Source: Prevotella sp. P5-108 (lineage in GTDB: Bacteria; Bacteroidota; Bacteroidia; Bacteroidales; Paludibacteraceae). Taken from it: DNA of 42,018 nucleotides. Positions 4,319-28,852 of the stretch are shown here, piece after piece. The stretch lies in NCBI GenBank assembly GCA_963636305.1, contig CAVHKB010000001.1:1-42018 (forward strand), written 5' to 3'. The translations under genes and the position numbers were made by a program. A model generated the notes under the pieces. The model was not told the origin of the DNA and searched no databases. It was given only the letters and a program-made list of their open reading frames with translations. Position 1 is the stretch's first letter. Each line of letters begins with the position of its first letter.

Positions 4319-4791
4319 ATGCAGATTTTTGCGAGATTGAGCGCAAGTTTTTAGTCAATGACGACTCTTTCAAGACGATGGCAACAGCGAAAAAGGTGCT
4401 ATCGCAAGGCTATCTGTCGCGTGACCCGAAGCGTACGGTGCGCGTACGGATATGCGACGACAAGGGCTATCTAACGATAAAAGGAGAGACGGATGCCGCA
4501 GGGTTGAGCCGTTTTGAATGGGAGAAAGAGATACCCAAAACGGAGGCACAAGCCTTGTTGCGTATATGTTTACCGACGGTGATAGAGAAAGAGCGTTATA
4601 TTGTGCCCTACAAAGGCATGGTATTTGAGGTAGATGTATTCCATGGGATACATGAGGGGCTTGTACTGGCAGAGGTGGAACTACGGTCGGAGACGCAAGC
4701 CGTGACCTTACCTCCTTTTATCGGAAAGGAAGTGACTGGCAATCAGAGATACTACAATTCCTATCTTTCACAGAAGAGTGATAATAACTAA
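4315..4791 (+). CDS. CYTH domain protein (triphosphate tunnel metalloenzyme family)
   Basis: 158 aa with the N-terminal EIERKFLV (ExExK) signature. ATG 4315 overlaps the upstream TGA (ATGA), consistent with translational coupling. Confidence 0.8.
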   Translation: MNADFCEIERKFLVNDDSFKTMATAKKVLSQGYLSRDPKRTVRVRICDDKGYLTIKGETDAAGLSRFEWEKEIPKTEAQALLRICLPTVIEKERYIVPYKGMVFEVDVFHGIHEGLVLAEVELRSETQAVTLPPFIGKEVTGNQRYYNSYLSQKSDNN

Positions 4792-4803
4792 CACAATACA
4801 GCA

Positions 4804-6255: not shown

Positions 6256-6935
6256 TGCACCTGCCGATGTACAAAGCCTTTTTCTTCGATATGGATGGTG
6301 TGTTGTTCGACTCTATGCCCCACCATGCAAAAGCCTGGGACATGGTCATGAGCAAGTATGCACTCGACTTCAACGCACACGACACCTACCTGCAGGAAGG
6401 ACGCACCGGTCAAGATGTCATCGAAGAGTGTTACCGAAGGAAATATCATACCTCGCCACCCGAGTCATTGGTCTGGCAAATCTATCACGAGAAGACCGAC
6501 TTGTTCCATCAGTTGGGGGAAACACAACCCGTACAAGGCGTAGCAGAGGTGCTGTATTTCCTTAAGAACCTCCCCTCTTCCCCGCAGTTATGGATCGTAA
6601 CGGGTTCGGGACAGCAGACCCTCTTCGCGCAATTGGAGCAATCTTTCCCCTCCGTCTTTCAGCGCGACAAGATGGTCACCGCCTACGATGTCCGTCACGG
6701 CAAACCCAATCCCGAACCCTATCTGTGCGCCTTCCGACAGTCTGGCTGCAAGAAAGAAGAGTGCATGGTCATCGAGAACGCACCCCTCGGCGTCCGCTCT
6801 GGCAAAGGGGCGGGACTCTTCACTGTCGCCGTCAACACAGGCATCCTCAAGCCCGAAGATCTGTCGCACGAAGGTGCCGATAAGGTCTTCAATTCAATGG
6901 CCGACCTACTCCTGTTCCTGAAAACGCTGTTCTGA
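6255..6935 (+). CDS. HAD-IA hydrolase, beta-phosphoglucomutase/sugar-phosphatase family
   Basis: Motif I FFFDMDGVLFDS, then HGKPNPEPY and ENAPLGVRSGKGAG. The start overlaps the upstream stop (TAATG). ATG 6267 (MYKAFFFDMDG) is an alternative start. Confidence 0.8.
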   Translation: MHLPMYKAFFFDMDGVLFDSMPHHAKAWDMVMSKYALDFNAHDTYLQEGRTGQDVIEECYRRKYHTSPPESLVWQIYHEKTDLFHQLGETQPVQGVAEVLYFLKNLPSSPQLWIVTGSGQQTLFAQLEQSFPSVFQRDKMVTAYDVRHGKPNPEPYLCAFRQSGCKKEECMVIENAPLGVRSGKGAGLFTVAVNTGILKPEDLSHEGADKVFNSMADLLLFLKTLF

Positions 6936-8966: not shown

Positions 8967-9048
8967 CTCTCCCCTGCAATTGTTAAAATCCAATGAACGG
9001 TACTACACGCCGCCAAGCCCAATAAATACTATACATCACAAAGCATTT

Positions 9049-9114
9049 ATATACGATTCATATAGGACGAATATAGGACGAATATAGGATGAACATACAA
9101 AAAACATACAATCG
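9049..9114 (+). repeat. Copy A of the ATATAGGACGA-type 11-bp phased array (six units)
   Basis: Units: ATATACGATTC ATATAGGACGA ATATAGGACGA ATATAGGATGA ACATACAAAAA ACATACAATCG. The AATTGTTAAAA motif lies at 8978-8988, 60 nt upstream. Confidence 0.9.
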
Positions 9115-9145
9115 CCCTCCGCGCAATTTAACTTTTGCATACCGT

Positions 9146-9176
9146 TTCTTAATGGTTCTTAATGGCTTATTAACGG
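9146..9176. repeat. Short tandem repeat TTCTTAATGG x2 plus variant CTTATTAACGG in the DsbD-gene leader
   Basis: Read directly at 9146-9155, 9156-9165 and 9166-9176. Confidence 0.8.
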
Positions 9177-9211
9177 TCAATCTTTCGGCAACCAAACAGT
9201 GAAGCAGTGTT

Positions 9212-10789
9212 ATGAAAAAAACGAAAATAGCCCTTATCTGTGTCCTTTGTTTACTTTTCGGTGCAGTCAACGCACAGATAGTAGCACCCGTCCATTGGAC
9301 GGGCAAGACTGTAGGCGACAGCATCTGTCTGCAGGCAACCATCGACAAAGGCTGGCACGCTACCATCTTCTCAATTGGCGATTCCGTCATCGAAAAAGAA
9401 TATACCGACACTTACACCGTAACGCTCCCTGCCTCGCATAATGCCTCTGTTCGCTACAATGCCTGCAACGACCAACTCTGCACCGCTCCCGAAGTATGGG
9501 AGTACAACCCGCAAACCCCTGTCGTGCAGCAGAGCATTCCTGCCGATACCTCGCTCTGGAGACTCTTCCTGCTCGGACTGTTGGGAGGACTATTGGCGAT
9601 ATTCACACCTTGTGTCTGGCCTATCATTCCTATGACGGTGTCCTTTTTCCTGAAGCGACCCGACAAAGGCGTACAAAATGCACTCCTCTATGGCTTGGCT
9701 ATTGTTATTATCTATGTCGGACTGGGCTTGATCGTTACCGCAATCTTTGGCGCATCGGCTCTCAACGCTATCTCCACCAACGCCATAGTCAATCTCTTCT
9801 TCTTTGCTTTGTTGGTGGTCTTTGCCCTCTCTTTCTTCGGATTGTTCGAAATAACTCTGCCCTCCTCATGGTCCACCAAACTCGATAGTAAAGCACGCTC
9901 CACTACAGGCTTCCTATCAATACTGCTGATGGCATTTACATTGGTCATTGTTTCTTTCTCCTGCACAGGTCCTATCATAGGCACATTGCTGGTCGAAGCG
10001 GCAGGACACTCATTCATGGCTCCCGCAATCGGTATGCTCGGCTTCGCAATAGCATTGGCGTTGCCCTTCTCTTTGTTCGCTATGTTTCCCCAATGGATGA
10101 GAAGTATGCCCCGTTCAGGTGGCTGGATGCAGTCCTTCAAGGTAGTCCTTGCTTTCCTGGAGTTGGCACTTTCACTCAAGTTCCTTAGTGTAGCAGACCT
10201 TGCTTATGGGTGGGGCATATTGCCACGCTGGCTTTTCCTTGCCATCTGGATTGCATGCTTCTTCGGAATAGGACTCTATCTGCTTTGGAACATAACCAAA
10301 CTTTCTGCAACACGCAAGGTTGTTCGTACCGTCGTCATTCTTCTCTCGTGGGGATTTGCAGCCTATCTCCTGCCCGGACTATGGGGCGCACCCGTCAAAG
10401 CCGTCTCTGCTTTCGCACCTCCAATGAAGATACAGGGTAGGGAAGTCTTCAACGACTACGACGAGGGTATGGCTTACGCCAAGCAGGAACATAAACCCGT
10501 ACTACTCGATTTCTCCGGCTATGGTTGTGTCAATTGCCGTAAAATGGAGGCGTATGTACTGGATAACGAACAAGTCAAGACACGACTCCAAAACTATGTC
10601 CTCATTGAACTCTATGTCGATGATAAACGCAACGGTATAGGAGAGAAAAACAGTCGGCTCCAACGCGAACAATTTGGCTCCAATGCACAACCCTACTACA
10701 TCCAACTCTCCTCCTCTGGAGAACCTGTTAGCGAACCCTATGCATTCTCAACCAATATCGCCGATTTCCTACAATGGCTAAAATACTAA
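9212..10789 (+). CDS. Protein-disulfide reductase, DsbD family (N-terminal periplasmic domain, multi-TM core, C-terminal thioredoxin)
   Basis: Signal peptide present. N-domain cysteines in ACNDQLC, membrane cysteines in FTPCVWP and SFSCTGP, and C-terminal thioredoxin CxxC in GYGCVNCRKME. Confidence 0.8.
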   Translation: MKKTKIALICVLCLLFGAVNAQIVAPVHWTGKTVGDSICLQATIDKGWHATIFSIGDSVIEKEYTDTYTVTLPASHNASVRYNACNDQLCTAPEVWEYNPQTPVVQQSIPADTSLWRLFLLGLLGGLLAIFTPCVWPIIPMTVSFFLKRPDKGVQNALLYGLAIVIIYVGLGLIVTAIFGASALNAISTNAIVNLFFFALLVVFALSFFGLFEITLPSSWSTKLDSKARSTTGFLSILLMAFTLVIVSFSCTGPIIGTLLVEAAGHSFMAPAIGMLGFAIALALPFSLFAMFPQWMRSMPRSGGWMQSFKVVLAFLELALSLKFLSVADLAYGWGILPRWLFLAIWIACFFGIGLYLLWNITKLSATRKVVRTVVILLSWGFAAYLLPGLWGAPVKAVSAFAPPMKIQGREVFNDYDEGMAYAKQEHKPVLLDFSGYGCVNCRKMEAYVLDNEQVKTRLQNYVLIELYVDDKRNGIGEKNSRLQREQFGSNAQPYYIQLSSSGEPVSEPYAFSTNIADFLQWLKY

Positions 10790-10795
10790 ACAAAA

Positions 10796-11623
10796 ATGTT
10801 CTATAAATCTTCCCATTCACCTGCCGAACATACTGTGCGTACACCGCACAAACGGCAGCAATACGACACCAAACGCCCCCCTGAAAAAGAAATGATTTTC
10901 GGAATAAGGGCAGTCATCGAAGCAATCGACGCCGGAAAAGTACTCGACAAAGTACTGCTGCGCCGTGATATGAGCAGCACTATAGGTCGGGAACTGCTGC
11001 AAAAACTCTCCGGCACCAATACCCCCGTGCAGAAAGTACCGATAGAGAAACTAAACCAGTTCACCGATAAAAACCACCAGGGAGTTATAGCCTTCCTCTC
11101 TCCTATCGAGTTCCAACCTGTCGAAAACATCGTACAGTCGCTCTTCGACAATGGGAAAACGCCACTACTCATGATACTCGATGGTATCACCGATGTACGA
11201 AACTTCGGGGCTATTGCACGCACCTGCGTATGTGCTGGCGTCGATGCACTGATAATATCCGCCAAAGGAAGCGTCGCTGTCAATGGCGATGCCGTTAAAA
11301 CTTCGGCGGGCGCACTGCACACATTGCCTGTCTGCAAGGTCGAAAACCTGCAGAACTGCCTCACTTTCCTCAAAGACAGTGGTCTGCAAATACTGGCTGC
11401 TACCGAACATACTACTACCAACTACACCGATGCCAATATGACACTCCCTACCGCAATCATCATGGGGTCCGAAGAAAATGGTATCTATCAGGCAAATCTG
11501 TCGTTAGCCACCCAACAGGTGCGTATTCCTATGACGGGGGCTATTGAAAGCCTCAATGTATCCGTAGCGGCAGGAGTAATACTCTACGAGGCAGTACGCC
11601 AAAGGGCAATTCGTAAAGCGTAA
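10796..11623 (+). CDS. rlmB: 23S rRNA (guanosine-2'-O)-methyltransferase, SpoU/TrmH family (RlmB-like)
   Basis: SpoU substrate-binding N-domain (IFGIRAVIEAI) and methylase core (NFGAIARTC, GSEENG, ESLNVSVAAG). The basic N-terminal extension is uncertain, and ATG 10892 is an alternative start. The gene begins 6 nt after the DsbD-like gene. Confidence 0.75.
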   Translation: MFYKSSHSPAEHTVRTPHKRQQYDTKRPPEKEMIFGIRAVIEAIDAGKVLDKVLLRRDMSSTIGRELLQKLSGTNTPVQKVPIEKLNQFTDKNHQGVIAFLSPIEFQPVENIVQSLFDNGKTPLLMILDGITDVRNFGAIARTCVCAGVDALIISAKGSVAVNGDAVKTSAGALHTLPVCKVENLQNCLTFLKDSGLQILAATEHTTTNYTDANMTLPTAIIMGSEENGIYQANLSLATQQVRIPMTGAIESLNVSVAAGVILYEAVRQRAIRKA

Positions 11624-13077: not shown

Positions 13078-14832
13078 TCAATCATCGTTCAACGCAAGCC
13101 ACTCCGACTCAAGTCCGTCCAGCAACGAACATACCTCGCTGTATCGTACCGACAACGATTCTGCATCCTGCCCGCTTAGTACTTCGCCCGACAATCGTCG
13201 CTCAATCGCCGCTTTCTCCTCTTCCAATCGTGGAATAGTCTGTTCTATCTCCTCCAATCGGTTACGCTCCTTAAACGATAAACGCTTGGGTTTATTGTCT
13301 TCATTCAATCGTGGCTTCACTTTCGCTACTGGAATAGCCGTCTGACGGCTGTTCTCTGCACGACTTTCCGCTTGTTGTCGATAGTCCGTGTAATTACCCG
13401 CAAAGTCTTCTACTACGCCATTACCCTTAAACACAAACAGATGGTCCACTATCCTGTCCATAAAGTATCGGTCATGACTGACAACTATCAGACAACCCTT
13501 GAACATCTCCAACCAATCCTCTAATACTCGCAGAGTTGGTATATCCAAATCATTCGTAGGTTCATCCAATATCAGAAAATTAGGCTGTTGCATAAGGATA
13601 TAGCATAAATACAGCCGCTGTCGTTCTCCGCCCGATAATTTCTCAACATAGTCATATTGTTGGGCAGGCGAAAATAGAAAATACTGCAAAAATTGTGACG
13701 CACTCACACACTTGTCCCTCACGCGCACCTGCTCCGCCACATCACTTATAATATCAATAACCTTCTTTCCCGCTTGAAAATGCAATCCTTCTTGGGCGTA
13801 ATAACCAAAACGCACTGTCCCACCAACATCAAATATACCCGAATCAACAGGCTCAATACCTAACAACATCCGTAAAAAGGTCGTTTTACCTGTCCCGTTA
13901 TTACCTATTATACCCAACCGCTCATACCTCGAAAATACATAATTGAACTTCCGAAGAATGCACAACTCACCATACTGCTTGCACACATCTTTCGCCTCAA
14001 ATATCTTATTACCGATATAAGCAGACTGCATCTGTAGTTGCATATCACCTGCTTCTCCCACACCTCTCGCACGCTCGGATATCTCTCGAAAGTTATCTAT
14101 CCGATAACGCGCCTTGTGTCCTCTGGCCTGCGGCATACGGCGCATCCATTCCAATTCTTTGCGGTATAGATTCCTGTACTTTTCAGTTTCGGCCTGTAAT
14201 GCTTGCAAATACTCCGCCCGTTTCGTCAAGTAATAAGTGTAATTACCATGATATGCACGCAACGAACCTCCTTCCAATTCCCATATATCCGTGCATACAC
14301 TGTCCAAAAAGTACCTGTCATGCGTCACCATAAGCAGAGTCACCGACGAACGCTGCAAATAGCACTCCAACCACTCCACTATACCTAAGTCCAAGTGATT
14401 AGTAGGCTCGTCCAATAGTAGCAAATCCGGATGACTCACCAAACACTCCGCAAGCATAATCCTCTTCTGCTGCCCACCACTCAATGTGCCTATCGACCGT
14501 TGTATATCCGTTATCCCAAACTGCGTCAGCAGCCTGACAAACGCCTCCTTATCCTTCAAACCCTCTGCTATATGCGCTATAGTATCCTCCTCCTTAAAAC
14601 ATACCTTCTGCGGTAAATACCCTATGCGTAGCCCGTTACGGAAGGTTATATTCCCCTTGTCTGCACGCACGCAACCCGTCAGAATGTTCATCAAGGTCGT
14701 CTTGCCGCTGCCGTTACGGGCAATCAACGCAACCTTGTCACCCTGCGCAATACCAAACGACAAATCGTTCAGTAGCAGTCTGTCGCCTACCGATTTGTAT
14801 AGATGTTCTACTTGAAGATAAGAAACTGGCAT
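13078..14832 (-). CDS. ABC-F family ATPase (two tandem ABC cassettes, no TM domain; Uup/EttA-like)
   Basis: Two Walker A motifs (GSGKTT, GNNGTGKTT), two signature motifs (LSGGQQKR, LSGGERQR) and a charged coiled-coil C-terminus. Start taken at ATG 14832 (MPVSYLQVEHL). Confidence 0.85.
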   Translation of the reverse strand: MPVSYLQVEHLYKSVGDRLLLNDLSFGIAQGDKVALIARNGSGKTTLMNILTGCVRADKGNITFRNGLRIGYLPQKVCFKEEDTIAHIAEGLKDKEAFVRLLTQFGITDIQRSIGTLSGGQQKRIMLAECLVSHPDLLLLDEPTNHLDLGIVEWLECYLQRSSVTLLMVTHDRYFLDSVCTDIWELEGGSLRAYHGNYTYYLTKRAEYLQALQAETEKYRNLYRKELEWMRRMPQARGHKARYRIDNFREISERARGVGEAGDMQLQMQSAYIGNKIFEAKDVCKQYGELCILRKFNYVFSRYERLGIIGNNGTGKTTFLRMLLGIEPVDSGIFDVGGTVRFGYYAQEGLHFQAGKKVIDIISDVAEQVRVRDKCVSASQFLQYFLFSPAQQYDYVEKLSGGERQRLYLCYILMQQPNFLILDEPTNDLDIPTLRVLEDWLEMFKGCLIVVSHDRYFMDRIVDHLFVFKGNGVVEDFAGNYTDYRQQAESRAENSRQTAIPVAKVKPRLNEDNKPKRLSFKERNRLEEIEQTIPRLEEEKAAIERRLSGEVLSGQDAESLSVRYSEVCSLLDGLESEWLALNDD

Positions 14833-14865
14833 AATCCTCCTACAACATTCGCATCGCAAGAGAAA

Positions 14866-15663
14866 CTACTTCTCAAAACAAGCCAACTTCTTTATAATGA
14901 CCATTACCGCCCAATCGGGCAAATGTTTTATGATGGGTACAAACAGATGATTAATAGCACCCGGCATGTCTTGCTTCTTACGACGGAACATTTTCTTCAA
15001 CGCACGCTGTGCCAACTTCTCAGGGGGAATACTGACATGCAGATTAACAGCCAAACGACGCAGATGAGGTGCCAATCCATACAAACCTGTATCCACTGCG
15101 CCTGGTGTGATAACGGTCACTCCTACGCCGTGAAGACGCATCTCATACCACAGACTCTTCGAAAAGTTCAGTATATAAGCCTTCGTCGCATTGTAACACT
15201 GTATGCCTGGCATTGCCATCCATGCCGACATCGACGACATATTCAAGATATAACCATGCCCCCGCTTGCACATGTCCTCACCGAACAATCGGCATAACTT
15301 GGTCATCGTTACCACGTGCAACATCGTCATCAGTTCAATCCGCTTCATCGATGTTTCCACCAACGGATTGAAGAAAAACACACCCGCATTGTTAATCAGT
15401 ATATCTACCTCCATATCATGGCTCTCGCACCAGTCATGCAACTCCTCCGCCGCATTCTGTAACGACAAATCACGATACAACGCCGTTGTCTTTACGCCAT
15501 ACTTCTCGGCTATATCCCGTGCTGCCTCCTCTATCTCTTTCTCCTGATTGCTTACCATCAACAAGTCGCAACCATAGGTGCGTGCCAACTCATGGGCATA
15601 CATCAGACCTATCCCGCTACTGGCTCCCGTCACAAGAGCCAACTGTTTGCCTAATTTCTCCAT
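14866..15663 (-). CDS. Short-chain dehydrogenase/reductase (classical SDR), candidate hydroxysteroid dehydrogenase
   Basis: TGASSGIG cofactor motif, NNAG, catalytic YNATK and a hydrophobic C-terminal tail. The start overlaps the upstream gene's end by 13 nt. Confidence 0.8.
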   Translation of the reverse strand: MEKLGKQLALVTGASSGIGLMYAHELARTYGCDLLMVSNQEKEIEEAARDIAEKYGVKTTALYRDLSLQNAAEELHDWCESHDMEVDILINNAGVFFFNPLVETSMKRIELMTMLHVVTMTKLCRLFGEDMCKRGHGYILNMSSMSAWMAMPGIQCYNATKAYILNFSKSLWYEMRLHGVGVTVITPGAVDTGLYGLAPHLRRLAVNLHVSIPPEKLAQRALKKMFRRKKQDMPGAINHLFVPIIKHLPDWAVMVIIKKLACFEK

Positions 15664-16889
15664 CGTGCTTCCGCTTTTGCTATTTCGTCCTCCAATTTCT
15701 TGGGCAGATACTCTTCACACTTGTGGCACTTCATCTCCAATGTGTACATACGACCCACACAATAGTTGCTGCGACCGCATTTCGAGTGATAAGCCTCGTC
15801 TTCCTGAATATGATTCACAAACGCTGGGTCCTCTATCAGTACATGAGCCATCTGAATCAAGTCAAATCCCTCTGCAAGTACAGTCTCGCAATTGGCTCTG
15901 CTCTGTACTCCGCCCACATAGATAAGTGGCAACTGCAACTCCTTGCGGAAACGCTTTGCCGTATCAAGGAAAAAGAGTTCCTTGAAAGGTACCGTCGGTA
16001 TCATCATCCGACCCACCAAATACAACATCGCCTTCAGCCACCAAAAAGTCTTCATAGGCATATAATACGCCAAGGTCTTTATCGGCATCGCTCCGCCCAT
16101 CACTACCATCGGTGCCTTGCTCACAAAACCGGCGGTCAGAACAAGCGCATGAACACCATGCTTCTCTATCGCTTTCGCAACGGTGATACAGTCATCCACC
16201 TGTAGCCCACGCTTGAACCCGTCATACATGTTCGTCTTCACTACAACCGCCATATCATCCCCCGCGTGCCGCATTACCTCGTCCAACACTTCGTGCATGA
16301 AACGCATTCTGTTCTCCAACGAACCCCCGTACTCATCTCTACGATGATTCGTATAAGGCGACAAGAATTGGGAGATAAGATAACCGTGTCCCGCGTGTAT
16401 CTCTACACAATCAAAGCCACATTCCCTGCAGAAATCCACTGCCTCACCGAAATGTTTCACAATCGTCTTGATTTCGTCCTTCCGCAATCCCCTCACTATC
16501 GTGGGTGAATACAGGTTTATTCCCGACGACGCACCCACTGGCAACTGATAACCGCAGGTGTAGAAATGAGTCATATTCCCGCAATGACCCAACTGAATAC
16601 TGGCTTTGGCTCCTTCAGCGTGTATCGCCGAGGTCAGTTCCTTCAACGCAGGCTTAATCTCGTCATGTATGTAAAGTTGTCCGTCAAACGACACGCCTGA
16701 ACGGTCAACGGCACAATAGGCGACCGTCGTCATGCCTATACCGCCACGCGCTACCGATGTGTGATAATCAAACAACGCCTTGCTCGGCTTGTTGCCCTGA
16801 CACATGTTCTCAAAGGCTGCCGAACGGATAGTACGGTTACGCAAGGTTACTGGACCTAACTGAAAAGGACTAAATAGTTTCGATTCCAT
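15651..16889 (-). CDS. NADH:flavin oxidoreductase, Old Yellow Enzyme family, with a C-terminal Cys cluster
   Basis: The N-terminus FSPFQLGPVTLRNRTIRSA is typical of OYE/2,4-dienoyl-CoA-reductase-like enzymes. Also HAGHGYLISQFLSP and a C-terminal CGRSNYC...CHKC cluster. Confidence 0.75.
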   Translation of the reverse strand: MESKLFSPFQLGPVTLRNRTIRSAAFENMCQGNKPSKALFDYHTSVARGGIGMTTVAYCAVDRSGVSFDGQLYIHDEIKPALKELTSAIHAEGAKASIQLGHCGNMTHFYTCGYQLPVGASSGINLYSPTIVRGLRKDEIKTIVKHFGEAVDFCRECGFDCVEIHAGHGYLISQFLSPYTNHRRDEYGGSLENRMRFMHEVLDEVMRHAGDDMAVVVKTNMYDGFKRGLQVDDCITVAKAIEKHGVHALVLTAGFVSKAPMVVMGGAMPIKTLAYYMPMKTFWWLKAMLYLVGRMMIPTVPFKELFFLDTAKRFRKELQLPLIYVGGVQSRANCETVLAEGFDLIQMAHVLIEDPAFVNHIQEDEAYHSKCGRSNYCVGRMYTLEMKCHKCEEYLPKKLEDEIAKAEARWRN

Positions 16890-19183: not shown

Positions 19184-20683
19184 TTATTGACGCAATTCTT
19201 TGTGGTCCTTCAACAACCGTTGCACCGCAAACTTGCCTGTCACAACCGCATTAGGCAAACCGCCCGGTGCTTGCAACCACTGACCCGCAAGATACAAGTT
19301 ATCTACCCCCTTCACACGACCCCTGTGATAAATCTTTTCGTTCTGCGAGGTAAGCGCAAAACTCATAAATGCCCCCTTATATACATTGCAATAACGGCTA
19401 TTGGTCACGGGCGTCGCCACATCCAACAACTTCAATTGCCCGCACAACTCTGAAAAACGCTTTTCTAATGCCTTCTGTACACTCTGGGCAACAAGATACT
19501 TTTCCACCTTGTATGCCTGGTAATCGCTTCTGCGCAACTCCGCCCAATAATCATAATCCTCCTCATATTGCGTCAATAGCACCTGCAAAATGCTTTTGCC
19601 TTCCGGCGAAAACGATGCCTCGTAATTGAAGTGTTTCAAAAAGCCTGTATCTACCGCACGCCCGTCTATCTCCAAGTTGTCAATATCCAATACCATAGCA
19701 CACGGAATATCACGAGTAATATGGTCCACTGCAAAATACAAGTTGACACTGCTGTAGGTCGGATATTTCTTCGGCAATCCGATAAAATGCTCATGCATAT
19801 ACTGGTCCGTATATTCTTTCGGCAACAGATTGACCATCGTATGATAAAGGTCGCAGGCTGCAATAATGTAATCTGCTTCCACGGTTATACCATTGCTGAA
19901 ACTGACAGAATAGGCGTGTCCCTCCTGTATGTTGATTCGCTCTGCCTCCCAGCCTGTATAAATCTTGCCACCAGTTGCCTTGTACCTCTCCACTATTCTG
20001 TCTGCCATACCCTTGCTCCCACCTTCAGGCAAGTCTGCATTGTCGTTGCAAAACGCTGCATATACGTAGAACAAAGAAGATACATTGTAAAACTTTGGGA
20101 AATAAACATTCAGCATCTTTCGGATAAGTGGGTTCGTAAAGCGTTCCGCATACTCCGATATAAGCATCTTCGAATAAACTCTGTGTACTTTCCCTACCTT
20201 CCTCATCGACCATACCAACTTCGCATATTCCCACAGCGACAGTTGCTCCATAGGCTTGTCTGCCACCAACGCCACATCCTGGTAGATATGCAGCAACTTG
20301 ATAAACTCGTCTATATGCTTCTTGTCTTCCGGCGCAATACGCAACAGGTCCTTGTGCAATCGGTCAATATCATGCCAGACATTCAAGGTCTGTCCCTCCA
20401 ACTCTACCTGCATAAACGACTCAGGTTGTATCACGCGCACATCATCGCCCAACACCCCTATGTCCTTCCATACTTTGTAAATAGCAGTCTTTGAGTTCGT
20501 GCCTGTAAGCCAATGCACACAATTATCAATCAAATAACCTTTGCGCTTCCACCAAGATAACAATCCGCCAGGAGTATGATGACGCTCATATACGGCACTC
20601 TCCAAACCCGCCTTCTGCGCATATATCCCAGCCGTTATTCCCGCTACGCCTCCCCCAATAATCAATACTTTTGCCATAATCAA
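19184..20683 (-). CDS. NAD(P)/FAD-dependent oxidoreductase, phytoene-desaturase (CrtI)-like family
   Basis: N-terminal Rossmann motif VLIIGGGVAGITAG. Its ~500-aa length and C-terminal GQW..PGGLPN segment are typical of amine-oxidase/CrtI-type flavoenzymes. TACTTTTG -7 box at 20757-20764. Confidence 0.65.
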   Translation of the reverse strand: MIMAKVLIIGGGVAGITAGIYAQKAGLESAVYERHHTPGGLLSWWKRKGYLIDNCVHWLTGTNSKTAIYKVWKDIGVLGDDVRVIQPESFMQVELEGQTLNVWHDIDRLHKDLLRIAPEDKKHIDEFIKLLHIYQDVALVADKPMEQLSLWEYAKLVWSMRKVGKVHRVYSKMLISEYAERFTNPLIRKMLNVYFPKFYNVSSLFYVYAAFCNDNADLPEGGSKGMADRIVERYKATGGKIYTGWEAERINIQEGHAYSVSFSNGITVEADYIIAACDLYHTMVNLLPKEYTDQYMHEHFIGLPKKYPTYSSVNLYFAVDHITRDIPCAMVLDIDNLEIDGRAVDTGFLKHFNYEASFSPEGKSILQVLLTQYEEDYDYWAELRRSDYQAYKVEKYLVAQSVQKALEKRFSELCGQLKLLDVATPVTNSRYCNVYKGAFMSFALTSQNEKIYHRGRVKGVDNLYLAGQWLQAPGGLPNAVVTGKFAVQRLLKDHKELRQ

Positions 20684-20833: not shown

Positions 20834-23140
20834 TCAGTCGTCAAACCCTGAATCATCCGCCCTCAAACGCTTCAACTGCGTATTAGGAAAATAATGCGCC
20901 AATATCTCTTTGTAACTGTATCCCTGCGTCGCCATAACTGCGGCACCAATTTGACACAACCCCACACCATGACCCCAACCTGCACCATACAGTGTAACCC
21001 CAACTTCCTCACTGTCTGCGTCCTGCTCCCTCTTGACTACAAACGCCGAACTATACAGATGCGACGGCGATAGCCATTTCCGTATTTCCAACTCCTTACC
21101 TACTGTCAACCGTCGCTTACTCCCCACTATCTCCAACTCGTATATGCGACCCGACTCACCCCTCTTCAATGGTATCAACGATTCTATCTCACCAAAATCA
21201 ATACCGCTCTTCTCTCGTACCAATGCCGATAGTTCCGCCACGCTGTAATGTACCTTCCACCGATAAAAATCCTGTGTCTCTTGGTCGTAGGTATTCAGTA
21301 CTTGCGACAAAATAGCATGGTCCTTCGTATTGCAAAAAGCCTCTGGAGATGACATAATCCATGCTTCCGCCTCACTCTCTCGTGTCAAGTCCGGTAGAAC
21401 AGCCTCCCGCGCATCTCTGATAGGGCGCAGATAAGGGTGACTCTCTTCTGCCCAGCAGTGTTCAAAACGCTCCGTCGCACCTCCGCACGACTTATAAAAA
21501 CGCGCATCACATATATGGTTCTCCCATGTAAGCACCTCACCCCAAGTAGCCTTCACCGCTTCTTCTACCGACTTACTGCTTTGGCGGGTAATACCCTGAT
21601 AACGCTGACAATGGTCGTCGGCGCATACATCAAAATGCTTGTGAGCATCACGCTCATACCAACGGATATGGCGCGTAGGTGTGTCCTCCCCGCATACTGC
21701 GTTCCCGCTACCTCCCTCCAACATCGGACGAAGCACCCAACTGCGTGAAATAACCGCATGTGCCTTCAATAGTTCTATATCACTTGCAGCATTCATCTCA
21801 CTCGAAATCACACTCTGCAGATAATCCTCCACCCCAGTCACATTAATAGCCGTTAAATGGTCCTCCTCCACAATTATCTCCAATCCACCTGCGAATCTCT
21901 GTTCTTCTTTACGCTCCCAATGAAAGTGAATGCCTATTACCACATCATGCAACCAGTAGGTGGAATATGCCTCCACCCCAGTAAAAAGCAATCTGTCATA
22001 TAACTTGCCCCTGAAACGAATCTTGCCGTCCTCTAACTCCACACTCTGTTCCCCTGTATATCGACTACCGTCCATACACAGCATATAGTCGCTTTCAAAA
22101 CGGAAGCGTATGCAAGGACTGTACAGCACGCCTACTCGAAGCGTCTTTTGTTGCTTTTCTATCATATTGTCTGTCATTTTAATCTCATCACTGCCTAACG
22201 AAACCTCTCTCACAATCTTCTCCAACAACTCTCCCGTCAACCTCCTGTAACTCTCCGAATCTGCCACAATGGCTATACCACTCATCTCCACACATGCAGG
22301 CGAAATAAGTATTTGAGCCTCTCCTTGCGCAAAGAAACACTTCGGACGCGACTCACTCCGCAGAATAACAAGCAATGCATACTCCTCCCGCTCTGCATCA
22401 TACCACGCAACCAAATTCATTCTCGGCTCCCACTCCGACCTCTCTCGCCCGTGCAATGCACCATAAATACGCAAAAACTGCTCCTTGACACACTCTCTCT
22501 TCAAACCCGCTACATAATACGCCGAACGAGCATAACGGCAAACTTTATAAACCGTCACACCATCCTCTCTCCTCAGCAACTCAATGCCTTCACCTCTTTC
22601 GCACATCCGTTGCAGCGGTAACGCATTATACGGAATCGCTTGAAAATGAAAATGATCAGGTGCCGACGCCCCACAATAAGGACCGTTATAAAATAGGGTG
22701 AAGTGTGGCAACGCCTCACACAACACAAACATATCATCTATATGAGGCAATATAGCCTGATGCTCATGCCTCGCTGACGAAATGGTATAATGTTCCTCAA
22801 AAATAGGAAACGGGTTCACTCGAATACAGTAACACCCCTCTTCTCCCTCATGCAAAGGCGACTGCCAATAGGTTGTCAACTGATTCTCTTCTAACCCGCT
22901 CGGACATAAAAAGCACGCTCGCCGTCGCAAACTCGCTGCATCTACCTCTGCCATAACCGACCTGACGCGCTCTCGGTTGAAGCGTATCTCTACCTCCAAC
23001 CCGTCACAAACACACCGCTTCTTTTCAATGTGCCTCAACTGCATATAATGAGCAGATGCCCGCCCGCAAGAGGCTATCTCGCAAGCAAACATCTGCCGTA
23101 TTCTCTCCTCCAAAGGAGAAACAGAATCAATGCTCATCAT
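20834..23140 (-). CDS. Fusion protein: N-terminal DUF4922/HIT(GalT)-like nucleotidyltransferase-phosphorylase domain plus C-terminal SpoIID/LytB-like domain
   Basis: Continuous ORF. Start set at ATG 23140, which overlaps the GT2 stop as ATGA. HFHFQ (HxHxQ) lies at 22640-22654. SpoIID-type motifs are VISSEM (Glu codon 21797-21799), CADDHCQRYQG and GAGWGHGVGLCQIGA. No signal peptide or TM segment. Confidence 0.7.
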   Translation of the reverse strand: MMSIDSVSPLEERIRQMFACEIASCGRASAHYMQLRHIEKKRCVCDGLEVEIRFNRERVRSVMAEVDAASLRRRACFLCPSGLEENQLTTYWQSPLHEGEEGCYCIRVNPFPIFEEHYTISSARHEHQAILPHIDDMFVLCEALPHFTLFYNGPYCGASAPDHFHFQAIPYNALPLQRMCERGEGIELLRREDGVTVYKVCRYARSAYYVAGLKRECVKEQFLRIYGALHGRERSEWEPRMNLVAWYDAEREEYALLVILRSESRPKCFFAQGEAQILISPACVEMSGIAIVADSESYRRLTGELLEKIVREVSLGSDEIKMTDNMIEKQQKTLRVGVLYSPCIRFRFESDYMLCMDGSRYTGEQSVELEDGKIRFRGKLYDRLLFTGVEAYSTYWLHDVVIGIHFHWERKEEQRFAGGLEIIVEEDHLTAINVTGVEDYLQSVISSEMNAASDIELLKAHAVISRSWVLRPMLEGGSGNAVCGEDTPTRHIRWYERDAHKHFDVCADDHCQRYQGITRQSSKSVEEAVKATWGEVLTWENHICDARFYKSCGGATERFEHCWAEESHPYLRPIRDAREAVLPDLTRESEAEAWIMSSPEAFCNTKDHAILSQVLNTYDQETQDFYRWKVHYSVAELSALVREKSGIDFGEIESLIPLKRGESGRIYELEIVGSKRRLTVGKELEIRKWLSPSHLYSSAFVVKREQDADSEEVGVTLYGAGWGHGVGLCQIGAAVMATQGYSYKEILAHYFPNTQLKRLRADDSGFDD

Positions 23141-24564
23141 TCCTTTCGGGCATTCATGGCTATACGAGCCTTCAACTCCCAAGTGCGTATCCTGTCTTTA
23201 TAGAGGTTGTTCTTGTTCATAGCCTCTATATCACAGTTCGCGTCTGAATTGTCGTCCCAACGACGGCAGTTGTAAACCACTTCATAGATACGACCAATCT
23301 GATACTCCCTGCTCACGCGCAATCCCACTGCATAGTCCTCCCCATATTTGGTGGTAGGGAAATTAATCTTGCGCAATAGCGGAGTATAGAACCCTCGAGG
23401 CGCACCCAATCCATTGATACGGAGTGCATTATTCCTGCCGTTATCTGGTGTCCACTCTCTGTGGTCTATCACGCCAGGAGGAAGAATGTTCCCGTCAAAG
23501 TCTGTCATACGATAGGTACCAACCACCATAGCGCAGTCCTGTTCATGAAAGGCATCTATAAACTTCTGAACCGTATGCTCGTCATAATAGGTGTCGTCCG
23601 AATCCAACTGAATGGCAAAACGACCGCATTTCGGGTGGTGTAGGGCTACATTCCAGTTTCCGCCTATCGCGTGCCAACTCTTATCCTGAGCAATATAAAT
23701 CAAGTTCTCATGACCCTCCGACACAATCTCTCGGATAATATCAACTGTACCGTCTTCAGAATTGTCATCCACAACAATCACGTTGTATTTATACTGCTTG
23801 TCCACCACCTGGTTCAATGCACTGCGTATCGCCGTGCCTATCGTGCGCACCCTGTTCTTGCACGGTATCACTACCGATGCCTCATACTCAAATCCACCCC
23901 CCTGCAAATCTATATCCTTGAATCGGGGAACAAGATATCCACCTATATCCTTCAAGTGTTGCGTGCAGGCTGCCTCCATCTCTATCTGAACACCACGGTT
24001 CTTGGGGTCCACATAGTCAAACAGTTTCTCCCCCGACTTGCGTGTATCCAACTCAACATCGTAATACAAATACTCGTTGATATGCTCCAATGCCCCGTGC
24101 TGACTAACTTTCAACCGCAAATCATACAGTCCCGCATAAGCATAATCCTTGTCCATTCTCTCTACCGCTGCTTTCAGCGCACTCGTGCGATAAAACAACA
24201 CCGAACCGAAATCAAAGTCATCTCGCAATGCGCCCATCTGGTAATCTATCACAGGAGCATTGCTGCGCTCCTCGCCCACCTGGTTAAAGTGGTCCGAGTA
24301 AACCATTGCGGCACCGCTGTCTTCTATCAACGCCTCCATTCGCTCCAAGGCAAACAGCACAAACGATAGGGTGGTGTACTTGGTGTAAATCAAAGTATAA
24401 GGAGTTGTCGTGTGCGAGGCAATAAAGCGCATATTCGCACTACTGCGCATATCTCCCTTCAGGAAATGTATCTCGTTAACGAGCGGTTGTGCCTGCAAAT
24501 TGGCTACGGTCTGTTTCACTTGTTCCTCACTCTGGAACGGAATAAAGCAATCAATGTTTTTCAT
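23137..24564 (-). CDS. Soluble family-2 glycosyltransferase with an additional degenerate GT-A-like N-terminal half
   Basis: Start at ATG 24564 (MKNIDCFIPF). The canonical GT2 half carries VVIPCKNR...VIVVDDNSEDGT...QLDSDD. The N-terminal ~230 aa has a GT-A-like pattern (CFIPF ... MVYSDH). No TM segments. Confidence 0.75.
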   Translation of the reverse strand: MKNIDCFIPFQSEEQVKQTVANLQAQPLVNEIHFLKGDMRSSANMRFIASHTTTPYTLIYTKYTTLSFVLFALERMEALIEDSGAAMVYSDHFNQVGEERSNAPVIDYQMGALRDDFDFGSVLFYRTSALKAAVERMDKDYAYAGLYDLRLKVSQHGALEHINEYLYYDVELDTRKSGEKLFDYVDPKNRGVQIEMEAACTQHLKDIGGYLVPRFKDIDLQGGGFEYEASVVIPCKNRVRTIGTAIRSALNQVVDKQYKYNVIVVDDNSEDGTVDIIREIVSEGHENLIYIAQDKSWHAIGGNWNVALHHPKCGRFAIQLDSDDTYYDEHTVQKFIDAFHEQDCAMVVGTYRMTDFDGNILPPGVIDHREWTPDNGRNNALRINGLGAPRGFYTPLLRKINFPTTKYGEDYAVGLRVSREYQIGRIYEVVYNCRRWDDNSDANCDIEAMNKNNLYKDRIRTWELKARIAMNARKE

Positions 24565-24610
24565 TCTTATGATATGTTTTTTACGGATTATATGGCTATA
24601 ATCCTGTTGT

Positions 24611-26593
24611 TTACAAAATATGATACTGCACAAAGGCCTCTATCGCCTCATAATTGGCTAAACCCAACTGTGCATACAACTCCGCTGTGGCATGATTCCG
24701 GTCCTCTGCACGCTGCCAGAACAAACGCTCATCATTCCCCATAAACGGCGCTGACTCCATCTGACTCTGATGTTTCAATATCGTATTACGCTTGAAACGC
24801 AACTCTTCAGGCGACATCGGAACTGCCATCTCTATCAAATCCACCTCCCATTCCATCCAAGCACCTCTGTACATCCAAATGCGGCACTTCTGCAACCATT
24901 TCTCTTTGTCCTTCAGTTCGTCTATCGCAGCCAACACTGCGTCCAAACATACCTTGTGCGTACCATGCGGGTCCGCTAAGTCACCGGCAACAAACATCTC
25001 GTCTGGCTTTATCTCTACCAATAGACGCTTCACAATATCAATGTCCTTTTGCGACAAATCACCCTTCTTTATCGTCCCCGTCTCATAGAACGGCAGATTC
25101 AAAAAGTGTATGTGAGAGGTCGGCAATCCCATATGACGGCATGCCGCTGTCGCTTCACCCCTTCGGATAAGTGCCTTGATATCCAATATCTCACGAGTAT
25201 CTCTGTCGTCCTTTTTCTCGTTGAACAAGTAATGAGTGTACTCGTTATACTTCTCCTCAATCACCTTGTCCTCCGGGCTGTGCATCTGACCGAAACCGCG
25301 CATGAAGTCCATAAAACGAACCACCTCGTCATCACACACCGCAATACAACCGCTCGTCTCGTAGGCTATATGCACATCATGACCTTGCTTAATCAAACGG
25401 GCAAATGTGCCACCCATCGAAATCACATCATCATCCGGATGCGGCGAAAATATCAACACTTTCTTTGGATATGGCTTTGCACGCTCAGGACGGTTACTGT
25501 CGTCCGCGTTGGGCTTACCACCCGGCCAACCTGTAATCGTGTGCTGCAAATCGTTGAAGATTTTTATGTTGCAGTTATAAGCCGAACCATAAATAGTTAT
25601 CAACTCGCTCAAACCGTTCTCGTTGTAGTCTTTGTTCGTCAGTTTCAGTATAGGCTTGCCCGTTTGCTGGCACAACCATACTATGGCACGCCGTGTCAAC
25701 TGGTCGTCCCACTCGCAAGAGGTCAACAACCACGGACACTTTAGTCTTGTCAACTGACCCGCTGCCGATAAGTCCAACACTACCTCCGCATTCGAATGTA
25801 ACTGCAAAGCAGAGGCAGGACACGACGGGTTACACTGCTTCTCCACTGCCGCACGAATCTGTGCCGACTTGTGTTCTCCCCAAGCAACCATAACTACCCG
25901 CTTCGCCCGAAGTATAGTACCCAAACCCATCGTTATGGCACACATCGGCACCTGCTCAACCGAACCGAACAGATTGGCGGCATCATTCTTCGATACATTG
26001 TCCAACACCACCAAACGGGTCGGACTGTTAAACTGCGTACCAGGTTCGTTGAAACCGATATTGCCGCCGCGACCGATTCCCAACAACTGAAAATCAACTC
26101 CGCCCATATCTTGCAACTTCTGCTCATAATCCATACAAGCATTCAGTATATTGCTCTTCTCCTGCGTGCCGTCTATCGTGAACACATTCTCTGCCTGAAT
26201 GTCAACCTGGTCCAACAACTGCTCTTTCAACTGACCAAAACAACCCTGCAGATTGTCTGTCAACGGGTAGTATTCAAACAGGTTGAATATAACCACATTC
26301 CTGAAACTCAGCCCCTCCTCCTTATGCAAACGCACCAATTCTTCGAACACATCAGTCATGCTCCTGCCTGCAACAAGCGACAAGATGGCAAACGAATGTT
26401 TCTTCTGCTTCGCCAGAATAACTTCCGCTATCTGACGCGCTACATACTTCGCACCTTCCTGTGCACTCGAACAAATATGCGTGTGGAGAAGTTCAAAACG
26501 GGTCAAACGCGACAACTCAAATACATCGTCCGTTTGGTAAAGTTTCTTCGCTATGTGAGTCAGCGAAATCTGTGAACTTAAATTAGTTCTCAT
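24611..26593 (-). CDS. Fusion protein: NagB-like sugar-phosphate deaminase/isomerase-fold domain plus PIG-L/LmbE-family deacetylase domain
   Basis: Start at ATG 26593 (MRTNLSSQ). NagB-like blocks are VVIFNLFEYYP and LGIGRGGNIGFNEPG. LmbE motifs are IFSPHPDDDVISMGG (HPDDD at 25427-25441) and DPHGTH. TACCTTTG -7 box at 26671-26678. Confidence 0.75.
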   Translation of the reverse strand: MRTNLSSQISLTHIAKKLYQTDDVFELSRLTRFELLHTHICSSAQEGAKYVARQIAEVILAKQKKHSFAILSLVAGRSMTDVFEELVRLHKEEGLSFRNVVIFNLFEYYPLTDNLQGCFGQLKEQLLDQVDIQAENVFTIDGTQEKSNILNACMDYEQKLQDMGGVDFQLLGIGRGGNIGFNEPGTQFNSPTRLVVLDNVSKNDAANLFGSVEQVPMCAITMGLGTILRAKRVVMVAWGEHKSAQIRAAVEKQCNPSCPASALQLHSNAEVVLDLSAAGQLTRLKCPWLLTSCEWDDQLTRRAIVWLCQQTGKPILKLTNKDYNENGLSELITIYGSAYNCNIKIFNDLQHTITGWPGGKPNADDSNRPERAKPYPKKVLIFSPHPDDDVISMGGTFARLIKQGHDVHIAYETSGCIAVCDDEVVRFMDFMRGFGQMHSPEDKVIEEKYNEYTHYLFNEKKDDRDTREILDIKALIRRGEATAACRHMGLPTSHIHFLNLPFYETGTIKKGDLSQKDIDIVKRLLVEIKPDEMFVAGDLADPHGTHKVCLDAVLAAIDELKDKEKWLQKCRIWMYRGAWMEWEVDLIEMAVPMSPEELRFKRNTILKHQSQMESAPFMGNDERLFWQRAEDRNHATAELYAQLGLANYEAIEAFVQYHIL

Positions 26594-27168: not shown

Positions 27169-28026
27169 ATGATTTTAATCGCTGACAGTGGTTCTACCAA
27201 AACCACATGGACACTCATGGCTGCTAACAGCCAAACTTCCGAGTTCTCAATGGACGGTATCAATCCTTTCTACCAGACTTCCGACGCCATTAAGAACTCT
27301 ATCGTCACACAACTCCTTCCCCAACTCTCCCACCTACTCTGGGCGGGGACTATAACTGACATCTATTTCTATGGTGCAGGATGTACACCCGAGAAAACCA
27401 AATTTGTCATATCTGCACTCGAAGGCTCGTTCAAAACTGCCAAAGCCCATGTCGAAAGTGATATGGTCGGTGCAGCAAGAGGACTGCTCGGGCGGACGCA
27501 AGGTATCGCCTGCATTCTTGGTACAGGCTCCAACTCCTGCCTCTACGACGGAGAAAAAATCATCAAGAATGTACCCGCACTCGGCTTTATTCTCGGCGAC
27601 GAAGGCAGCGGTGCTGTACTTGGCAAACGCCTCGTGGCAGATGTACTCAAAAATCAGTTGCCCGAACATATCAAAAACAAATTTCTTCAGCAATACAACC
27701 TCACGCAGGCGGAAATCATAGAGAATGTCTATCGCAAACCTTTCCCCAACCGATACCTCGCCTCTCTTTCCAAGTTCGCTGCCGAAAACATACAGGAAGA
27801 ATCCATCTACAACCTCGTTTACGAGCATTTCCGTCAGTTCGTCATCCGTAACCTCAAGCAGTATCCTTCTCTGCCCGTCGGATTTATCGGCTCCATTGCT
27901 TACTACTATGCCGATGTTCTCCGCAAGGTCATGAACGACAACAATATGCAAGTCGCACAAATACTCCAGTCGCCCATGCCAGGACTCGTGAAGTATCATG
28001 CACAAGATGCCAAACCGACTAACTGA
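27169..28026 (+). CDS. BadF/BadG/BcrA/BcrD-type ASKHA sugar kinase (GlcNAc / MurNAc kinase, MurK-like)
   Basis: 285 aa with MILIADSGSTKTTW (phosphate-1), ILGTGSNS (phosphate-2) and ILGDEGSGAVLG (adenosine motif). It sits directly upstream of murQ. Confidence 0.7.
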   Translation: MILIADSGSTKTTWTLMAANSQTSEFSMDGINPFYQTSDAIKNSIVTQLLPQLSHLLWAGTITDIYFYGAGCTPEKTKFVISALEGSFKTAKAHVESDMVGAARGLLGRTQGIACILGTGSNSCLYDGEKIIKNVPALGFILGDEGSGAVLGKRLVADVLKNQLPEHIKNKFLQQYNLTQAEIIENVYRKPFPNRYLASLSKFAAENIQEESIYNLVYEHFRQFVIRNLKQYPSLPVGFIGSIAYYYADVLRKVMNDNNMQVAQILQSPMPGLVKYHAQDAKPTN

Positions 28027-28033
28027 TAACGAT

Positions 28034-28852
28034 ATGTTTGCAAAAATAACCGAACAGCCCTCCCTACACGATAACCTCGACCAGAAATCTGTACACGAAC
28101 TATTGGTCGAAATGAACGAAGAGGACAAAAAAGTACCTCTCGCCGTCGAGAAAGCAATACCGCAGATAACCAAACTCGTCGAACAAATCGTACCACGAAT
28201 GAAACAGGGAGGACGAATCTTCTACCTTGGAGCAGGCACTTCAGGACGACTCGGCGTACTCGACGCAAGCGAAATACCACCTACCTTCGGTATGCCTCCT
28301 TCACTCGTCGTAGGACTCATCGCCGGTGGTGACACCGCCCTCCGTAATCCCGTCGAGAAAGCCGAAGACGACCTCGAAAGAGGATGGCAGGACCTCCAGA
28401 AATACAACATCAATTCCTCCGACATTCTCATCGGTATCGCCGCTTCAGGCACAACGCCCTATGTCATAGGCGCACTCCGACACGCACGCGAACAGGGAAT
28501 ACTCACCGCTTCTGTCTCCTGCAATCCCGACTCGCCCGTCGCAGCCGAAGCCGACATACCTATCGAGGCAATAGTAGGTCCCGAATTCGTTACAGGTAGC
28601 ACACGGCTCAAATCCGGCACCGCACAAAAACTCATCTGCAACATGATAACCACCACTACCATGATACAACTCGGACGAGTCAAAGGCAATCGGATGGTCA
28701 ATATGCAACTGACCAACAAGAAACTTGTCGACAGAGGAACCCGTATGCTCGTCGACGAACTCGGCATCGACTACGAACAGGCAAAGCATCTCCTGCTCAT
28801 TCACGGCTCTGTCAAAGACGCACTCGACGCCTGGCAACAACAGAAAAATTAA
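28034..28852 (+). CDS. murQ: N-acetylmuramic acid 6-phosphate etherase
   Basis: SIS-domain protein with YLGAGTSGRLGVLDASEIPPTFG, GIAASGTTPYV and the TGSTRLKSGTAQK blocks typical of MurQ. Start chosen at ATG 28034, 8 nt after the kinase stop. Confidence 0.85.
   Translation: MFAKITEQPSLHDNLDQKSVHELLVEMNEEDKKVPLAVEKAIPQITKLVEQIVPRMKQGGRIFYLGAGTSGRLGVLDASEIPPTFGMPPSLVVGLIAGGDTALRNPVEKAEDDLERGWQDLQKYNINSSDILIGIAASGTTPYVIGALRHAREQGILTASVSCNPDSPVAAEADIPIEAIVGPEFVTGSTRLKSGTAQKLICNMITTTTMIQLGRVKGNRMVNMQLTNKKLVDRGTRMLVDELGIDYEQAKHLLLIHGSVKDALDAWQQQKN

Follow-up and report, generated by a model that had tools for sequence, protein, structure and literature searches.

A putative pseudo-deaminase fused to an intact PIG-L deacetylase in a lineage of Bacteroidales

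What does a glucosamine-6-phosphate (GlcN-6P) deaminase-like protein do once the residues that its reaction needs have been replaced? The question is raised by a gene on the reverse strand (24611..26593) of a 42,018-nucleotide stretch of the gut bacterium Prevotella sp. P5-108 (contig CAVHKB010000001.1, positions 1 to 42,018; hereafter the window), which encodes a fusion of an N-terminal domain resembling the GlcN-6P deaminase NagB with a PIG-L/LmbE deacetylase. The coding sequence runs from an ATG at 26593-26591 to a stop at 24611-24613 and specifies 660 amino acids including the initiator Met; residues are numbered here with Arg2 as residue 1. Homologues are 660-663 residues long and share the N-terminus MRTNLSS. 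Our favoured answer, whose probability we put only a little above even, is that the NagB-like half is a non-catalytic pseudo-deaminase carried on an intact PIG-L deacetylase, which converts MurQ-derived N-acetylglucosamine 6-phosphate (GlcNAc-6P) to GlcN-6P and thereby substitutes for NagA. The NagB/PIG-L protein family was already known; what is new is a lineage-wide, putative pseudo-deaminase variant on an intact deacetylase, most likely replacing NagA. The searchable literature yielded annotation-level mentions of the family and one experimental study, on Flavobacterium johnsoniae; no account of what the family does turned up there, and no description of the variant form.

Residues and fold of the NagB-like domain

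The protein matches the family model NF002557/PRK02122 ('glucosamine-6-phosphate deaminase-like protein') over profile positions 4-651 of 653 with 983.5 bits, against a cut-off of 384. A Pfam search placed PF01182 (the glucosamine-6-phosphate isomerase/6-phosphogluconolactonase fold) at residues 42-265 (E = 5.4e-19) and PF02585 (PIG-L/LmbE) at residues 379-556 (69.0 bits, gathering threshold 28.2), the latter over profile positions 1-129 of 129. The NagB equivalog model TIGR00502 gave 186.2 bits, under its curated cut-off of 236.9. Scores for 6-phosphogluconolactonase (TIGR01198, 56.9 bits, cut-off 124.45), AgaI (NF007291, 84.6 bits, cut-off 271) and the SorC/DeoR sugar-binding domain (PF04198, 12.4 bits, threshold 27, E = 0.089) also lie below threshold. 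The fusion family is common in Bacteroidota, with above-cut-off matches in 106 of 301 sampled genomes, some of which hold two or three paralogues. Its 30 top-scoring members are all canonical and read FNLDEY and G(I/V)GRTGH(I/V)GFNEP.

Matches to PF01182, TIGR00502 and Foldseek targets define the NagB-fold domain of the window protein at 25741..26524 (reverse strand, approximately residues 23-284), and it is here that the catalytic Asp and His are missing. A phmmer search of all PDB sequences aligned residues 40-278 with NagB (EC 3.5.99.6) of Bacillus subtilis (2bkv, E = 1.5e-41, 35% identity) and of Escherichia coli (1cd5, E = 6.6e-32; also 1dea), with no gaps near either motif. E. coli vvtfnmDeyvgl lies opposite vvifnlFeyyplt of the window protein, and gvgnDgHiafnEp opposite gigrGgNigfnEp. 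When 100 family members were aligned with both reference NagBs by MAFFT L-INS-i, the residue mapping came out the same. Both methods bear out the claim of an earlier note on this DNA that Asp72 had become Phe and His143 Asn, and its codon coordinates were correct. Asp72, which Oliva and colleagues are said to have established in 1995 as the general base of E. coli NagB, corresponds to Phe105 (26276..26278) within the FNLFEY motif (26270-26287), and the ring-opening His143 corresponds to Asn177 (26060..26062); neither alignment yields an Asp or His equivalent at these places in the active site. In NagB, His143 has a catalytic role and interacts with Glu148 (PMC4008608). The canonical fusions retain Thr41, Asp72 and His143 (64/64 each) and Tyr85 (61/64), and the clade of the window protein is without all four.

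The earlier note had also listed Asp141 to Gly among the losses. The glycine is present (Gly175, 26066..26068), but it has no diagnostic value: the active NagB of B. subtilis has Asn at this position, and Asp is equally missing from the canonical fusions (Thr in 39, Asn in 14, Ser in 6). Similarly, we discarded Arg172 as a diagnostic lost phosphate ligand, since the canonical fusions mostly carry Ser at that position too.

To gauge how far the substitutions extend, residues were counted over 121 sequences, the window protein and the 120 cluster representatives closest to it (68-98% identity). These relatives are labelled Paludibacter, Paludibacteraceae or Bacteroidales metagenome-assembled genome. 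The position of Asp72 is occupied by Tyr in 61 and Phe in 60 and never by Asp; that of His143 by Asn in 119 and Ser in two and never by His. Chance, a frameshift or sequencing error can be rejected as the cause, given that 121/121 homologues share the loss and the reading frame is unbroken. Other parts of the pocket persist. Glu182 (26045..26047), equivalent to Glu148 of the NEP motif, is kept in 119/121, as the earlier note had read it from the window protein alone. Lys241 (25868..25870), equivalent to the phosphate-binding Lys208, is likewise kept in 119/121 (22/26 in the wider variant clade defined below, 64/64 in canonical fusions), and Arg158 in 121/121. Compared with NagB, the window protein shares E73-Y74, N147-E148-P149 and K208, lacks Asp72 and His143, does not reach the TIGR00502 cut-off and has a deacetylase attached. 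A further change is a clade-specific Arg in the phosphate-binding loop, Arg76 (26363..26365) at the position of E. coli Gly43, found in 108/121 close homologues and in 15/26 of the wider variant clade, where 58/64 canonical fusions have Ser. We also considered, and rejected, an allosteric GlcNAc-6P site of the E. coli type within the N-domain: Arg158 is kept, but Lys160 is Val and Thr161 is Leu or Val.

The fold itself is predicted to be that of NagB, as had been supposed. In the AlphaFold2 model the N-domain has a predicted local distance difference test score (pLDDT) of ~90, and Foldseek superposes it on 2bkv with a target template modelling (TM) score of 0.93-0.94 and a root mean square deviation of 1.6-1.7 Å.

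Single origin of the variant and relaxation of one half

In a maximum-likelihood tree of 101 full-length fusions, all proteins with Phe or Tyr at position 72 and Asn at 143 fall into one clade of 26 representatives, with an SH-like approximate likelihood ratio test (SH-aLRT) support of 100 and a stem of 0.30. This variant clade also includes deeper relatives with S/N, T/G, C/T, E/G, G/G or Y/T at positions 72/143. It branches from within the canonical Asp/His fusions, and in its sister only the His is gone (D/Q). A tree built on nothing but the linker and PIG-L columns yields this clade again (support 99.6), and we therefore reject an artefact of fast N-domains as the reason for the clustering. 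A few further losses occur elsewhere in the tree, on long branches. The substitutions are a lineage trait of an old sub-clade with a single origin.

The D/Q state is found in the order-level relatives G330 (L076) and P0123, and such forms have the look of intermediates, with His143 lost ahead of Asp72. Two more relatives at this level show other disabled states: G031 (L100) is N/Q, reading FNINEY and GRGQIGANEP, and G127 (L101) has Tyr at position 72, reading FSIYEF.

Selection has treated the two halves of the variant differently. Of the positions with at least 95% conservation among canonical fusions, 15 are retained in less than half of the variant clade, and 15/15 lie in the N-domain, among them Thr41, Pro45, Asp72, Ser84, Tyr85 (deleted), His143 and Thr166 in E. 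coli numbering; the linker and the PIG-L half contain none. When C-domain divergence is matched, the ratio of N- to C-domain identity is ~0.68 in the variant clade versus ~0.95 in canonical fusions. The halves of canonical fusions evolve at equal rates, whereas in the variant the N-domain outpaces its partner by a factor of ~1.5-2. Estimates of dN/dS within the genus are ~0.10 (N-domain) and ~0.045 (C-domain), rough values given that dS is near saturation and usable pairs are few. The N-domain is under weaker yet clearly purifying selection, and this fits a non-catalytic structural or ligand-binding role, but neither an unchanged enzyme nor junk.

The helical linker between the domains (residues 286-372, 25475..25735, reverse strand) is the most conserved segment within the variant clade. 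Its identity within the genus is 85%, versus 60% and 83% for the two enzyme-like domains, and its conservation at equal divergence is 0.60 in the variant clade versus 0.31 in canonical fusions. The pattern may point to a new interface or function that arose alongside the loss of the deaminase residues.

The deacetylase half, gene content and competing explanations

The PIG-L/LmbE domain (24923..25456, reverse strand) is the only one found in the genome. Its HPDD metal-binding and catalytic motif (His384, Asp386 and Asp387; 25430..25441) aligns to the PHPDD of Pyrococcus diacetylchitobiose deacetylase. The HGTH motif (His542 and His545; 24956..24967) is presumed to supply the second set of zinc ligands, judging from the HxxH motif of the family and its position in the Pfam match; the phmmer alignment of the C-domain to a solved structure covers only the first 50 residues and leaves this motif outside. 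Both motifs are invariant in 121/121 homologues, in line with the view that the metal-binding motifs are intact, and His384, Asp386, Asp387 and His545 are near-invariant in the variant and canonical clades alike.

We then asked which amino-sugar genes accompany the fusion. The window's own genome carries a standalone canonical nagB of the E. coli type on contig C37 (TIGR00502, 422.7 bits), reading FNMDEY and GPDGHIAFNEP, and has no match to nagA (TIGR00221). Of the two separate genes whose presence the earlier note had left as a question, one is there and the other was not found, and it is this combination that makes the LmbE half a possible NagA substitute. The standalone nagB (G000:C37:7882-8658; L001 1501-2310) sits in a housekeeping neighbourhood (sigma-70, TerB/DnaJ, cysteinyl-tRNA synthetase) and not in a sugar operon. 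It has the allosteric-site residues S151, R158, K160 and T161, and its product may be GlcNAc-6P-activated.

The same pattern extends over the genus, sampled as 24 further genomes beside the window's own. A nagA match above cut-off was not found in 22 of the 24, nor in any of five variant-bearing genomes that are 100% complete (one is closed). Standalone nagB is present in 19/19 variant-bearing genomes of the sample, the window's own included. The two exceptions with nagA, G316 and G318, are the only two of the 24 without any NagB-like match, and hence have neither the fusion nor nagB, so that NagA and the fusion have a complementary distribution within the genus. Both keep the SusD-SusC-MurQ-kinase / GT2-(DUF4922)-SpoIID locus, described below, at 65-83% protein identity, with the fusion gene precisely absent between the kinase and the family 2 glycosyltransferase (GT2). 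Only ~135-430 bp remain at the fusion site in L096 (G316:C11), 8488-10976, and L097 (G318:C89), 4084-6789. We rejected nagA as a positional replacement of the fusion, for in these genomes it lies elsewhere, among suf, prs and other unrelated genes. Beyond the genus, canonical nagB stands directly beside the fusion in two outlying lineages with a disabled N-domain, G325 (S/N) and G330 (D/Q), and in the relatives G326 and G338 a canonical fusion is the sole NagA/NagB candidate. Thus a canonical fusion can stand alone, whereas the variant was always accompanied by a standalone nagB in the genomes examined. No nagA match at E<=1e-30 was found in 79 of 106 fusion-bearing genomes phylum-wide.

From these patterns a pathway can be proposed. 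MurQ yields GlcNAc-6P, the NagA substrate in the E. coli-type route (PMC13691567); given that the genome is without nagA, the neighbouring PIG-L enzyme is a natural candidate for the deacetylation step. The sugar kinase and MurQ encoded beside the fusion would act on imported N-acetylmuramic acid (MurNAc) to give GlcNAc-6P, the PIG-L half would convert this to GlcN-6P and acetate in place of the missing NagA, and the separate NagB of contig C37 would take GlcN-6P to fructose-6P. The order of steps counts against the earlier suggestion that the NagB-like domain feeds the deacetylase, since in the known pathway it is the deacetylase that feeds the deaminase. Gene content and context point to GlcNAc-6P as the PIG-L substrate. 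They also suggest that the canonical fusion is a bifunctional NagA-like/NagB enzyme and that in the clade of the window protein the deaminase step has passed to the separate NagB.

In this proposal the NagB half of an old PRK02122 sub-clade would have become non-catalytic through replacement of Asp72 by Phe/Tyr, of His143 by Asn and of Thr41, Pro45 and Ser84, together with deletion of Tyr85. Gly42, Glu73-Tyr74, Asn147-Glu148, Arg158 and Lys208 are retained, and an Arg has been gained in the phosphate loop. With a pocket partly kept and a new Arg in it, the N-domain most likely binds a sugar phosphate or scaffolds the enzyme, without deamination. The earlier note's suggestion of a binding or regulatory module that does not carry out classical deamination thus draws support from the alignments, the structural model, the clade-wide fixation, the selection on the domain and the gene content.

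Several observations weigh against this proposal. The window's own genome is only 89% complete. The exchange of nagA for the fusion is not a clean one-for-one swap, as G316 and G318 lack nagB as well, and these two genomes probably represent one evolutionary event. Phylum-wide, the fusion and nagA are positively associated (odds ratio 2.7) and occur together in 27 genomes. Among PDB sequences the PIG-L half matches archaeal diacetylchitobiose deacetylase best, an enzyme whose substrates are unphosphorylated sugars. In the AlphaFold2 model the C-domain and the packing of the domains are of low confidence (predicted TM score 0.54), as are residues 576-652, and for this reason we make no statement on channelling or on the proximity of the active sites. 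Lastly, the canonical homologue of F. johnsoniae (nagB of the chitin utilisation locus, ChiUL) could not be expressed and its deletion gave no phenotype (PMC5127042).

A different substrate altogether has to be weighed. The whole protein might act with its operon partners (GT2, the nucleotidyl-transferase-like DUF4922 protein and the SpoIID-like protein) on, for example, GlcNAc, a GlcNAc-MurNAc disaccharide or a nucleotide sugar, much as archaeal diacetylchitobiose deacetylase acts on chitobiose, with the NagB domain serving as a carbohydrate-binding module. Conservation of the fusion-GT2-DUF4922-SpoIID operon in homologues at 70-73% identity and within the genus speaks for this, as does the fact that the nearest solved PIG-L relatives are diacetylchitobiose deacetylases. 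However, G316 and G318 have kept the operon but not the fusion, and P0089, G231, G299 and G243 have the fusion but not that operon. Moreover, the intact GlcN-6P deaminase domain of the canonical relatives points to GlcN-6P as the deacetylase product, and a role in the operon would leave the nagA gap unfilled in genomes that have MurQ and NagB. We regard it as unlikely. That the NagB-like pocket is a new catalyst, carrying out another isomerisation or elimination on a phosphosugar such as a phosphate derived from MurNAc or muramic acid, appears improbable to us. In its favour, the replacements are fixed and not random (Tyr/Phe72, Asn143 and, in most close homologues, Arg43), Glu148, Lys208 and Arg158 are kept, dN/dS is ~0.1, and the gene is linked to MurNAc genes. 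Yet position 72 takes Phe and Tyr interchangeably (60 versus 61), which means that its side chain is not acting as acid or base, and in deeper members of the clade position 72 has drifted to S, T, C, G or E and position 143 to G or T, as expected for catalysis that was lost and not re-tuned. The faster evolution of the N-domain and the below-cut-off scores of the 6-phosphogluconolactonase and AgaI models also argue against a new catalyst, and we know of no PF01182 enzyme that works without the His.

Two further explanations take the N-domain to be either still active or without function, and both seem to us very improbable. A GlcN-6P deaminase still working through other residues would suit the very good fold match, the retained NEP glutamate and Lys208, and the database annotation as glucosamine-6-phosphate deaminase. 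Against it, neither the general base nor the ring-opening His is left, no acidic or His residue is conserved nearby, the TIGR00502 score is below cut-off, and a separate canonical nagB accompanies the variant in every examined genome although canonical fusions can stand alone. Conversely, the faster evolution of the N-domain relative to the C-domain might be taken as the mark of decaying, merely tolerated sequence, but every member of this deep clade is full length without frame disruption, many positions are invariant, the fold is predicted with confidence and dN/dS is ~0.1.

A more far-reaching reading, to which we give a slim chance, is that the rebuilt pocket is no relic and forms a new ligand site. 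It might gate the attached deacetylase as an allosteric sensor of a phosphosugar from peptidoglycan, MurNAc-6P or GlcNAc-6P for example, or else catalyse a new step of MurNAc salvage. The features in question are the clade-specific phosphate-loop Arg, the aromatic residue at 72, Asn at 143 and the retained Glu148, Lys208 and Arg158. If true, this would be a deaminase turned receptor, wired to a PIG-L enzyme that replaces NagA. There is a precedent for such reuse of the fold, since in the effector domains of SorC/DeoR regulators (PF04198; CggR, B. subtilis DeoR) a NagB-like fold serves as a non-catalytic phosphosugar-binding module. The window N-domain differs in having weak, below-threshold similarity to PF04198, no DNA-binding domain and a clear derivation from true NagB.

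These results bear on annotation. Thousands of Bacteroidales database proteins are named 'glucosamine-6-phosphate deaminase', and the variant clade lacks the residues that this reaction needs; pathway reconstructions for gut and rumen Bacteroidales therefore assign the deaminase step to the wrong gene. Approximately three quarters of the sampled fusion-bearing Bacteroidota genomes lack NagA, which makes the PIG-L half the obvious candidate GlcNAc-6P deacetylase for the catabolism of amino sugars, chitin, mucin and peptidoglycan sugars. The variant clade would offer a natural separation-of-function form, with the deacetylase half intact and the deaminase half predicted to be dead, and an example of one half of a bifunctional enzyme turning pseudoenzyme once a standalone copy is available.

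Related proteins and gene neighbourhood

Canonical NF002557/PRK02122 fusions, such as nagB of the F. johnsoniae chitin utilisation locus, have the same architecture, length and PIG-L motifs as the window protein at ~50-54% identity, and often lie beside SusC/D, a sugar kinase or MurQ. BT_0258 of Bacteroides thetaiotaomicron we take to be another canonical NagB/PIG-L fusion. Some Bacteroidota genomes (G022, G047, G239) are without nagA yet hold three full-length canonical paralogues each, suggesting that the copies have sub-functionalised according to substrate or regulon.

The Pfam search found no amidohydrolase domain in the window protein, and by sequence it is not a NagA (TIGR00221), so it can be a candidate functional analogue only. 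NagA would share with it the proposed reaction and the pathway position between MurQ/NagK and NagB. NagA is a TIM-barrel amidohydrolase, whereas PIG-L/LmbE proteins are Rossmann-like zinc hydrolases; as the folds are unrelated, an exchange of one for the other would be a non-orthologous replacement. Among characterised PIG-L/LmbE deacetylases, Pyrococcus Dac, MshB and BshB share the whole PF02585 profile and the PHPDD and HxxH motifs with the window protein. They are single-domain proteins acting on unphosphorylated GlcNAc glycosides, and the window PIG-L half differs from them by a ~70-residue insertion and its N-terminal NagB-like partner.

In the window the fusion gene is the first of an operon on the reverse strand. 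It is followed by the GT2 glycosyltransferase gene (23137..24633) and, last in the operon, by a gene for a 782-residue fusion of DUF4922 and SpoIID (20834..23182). Divergently, on the forward strand, lie a BadF-type sugar kinase resembling MurK (27169..28026; PF01869 matches weakly in a homologue), a MurQ-type etherase of the SIS family producing GlcNAc-6P (27998..28852) and a SusC/D-GHL10 locus. The kinase neighbours are 65-73% identical in relatives. This arrangement is kept in homologues at 70-73% identity and also within the genus, but not throughout the clade.

Some variation in the operon was observed among these relatives. DUF4922 and SpoIID are separate adjacent genes in relatives at 70-73% identity (L083 11461-13804; L087 13153-15650) and a single open reading frame in the window. 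In L087 genes for a BsaWI-like restriction enzyme and for an N6/N4 methyltransferase are inserted between GT2 and DUF4922. The operon of L083 goes on with a BT1/major facilitator superfamily-type transporter (13828-15693), possibly AmpG-like, that is absent from the window; there, an amine-oxidase-like gene (19184-20683) follows the operon instead.

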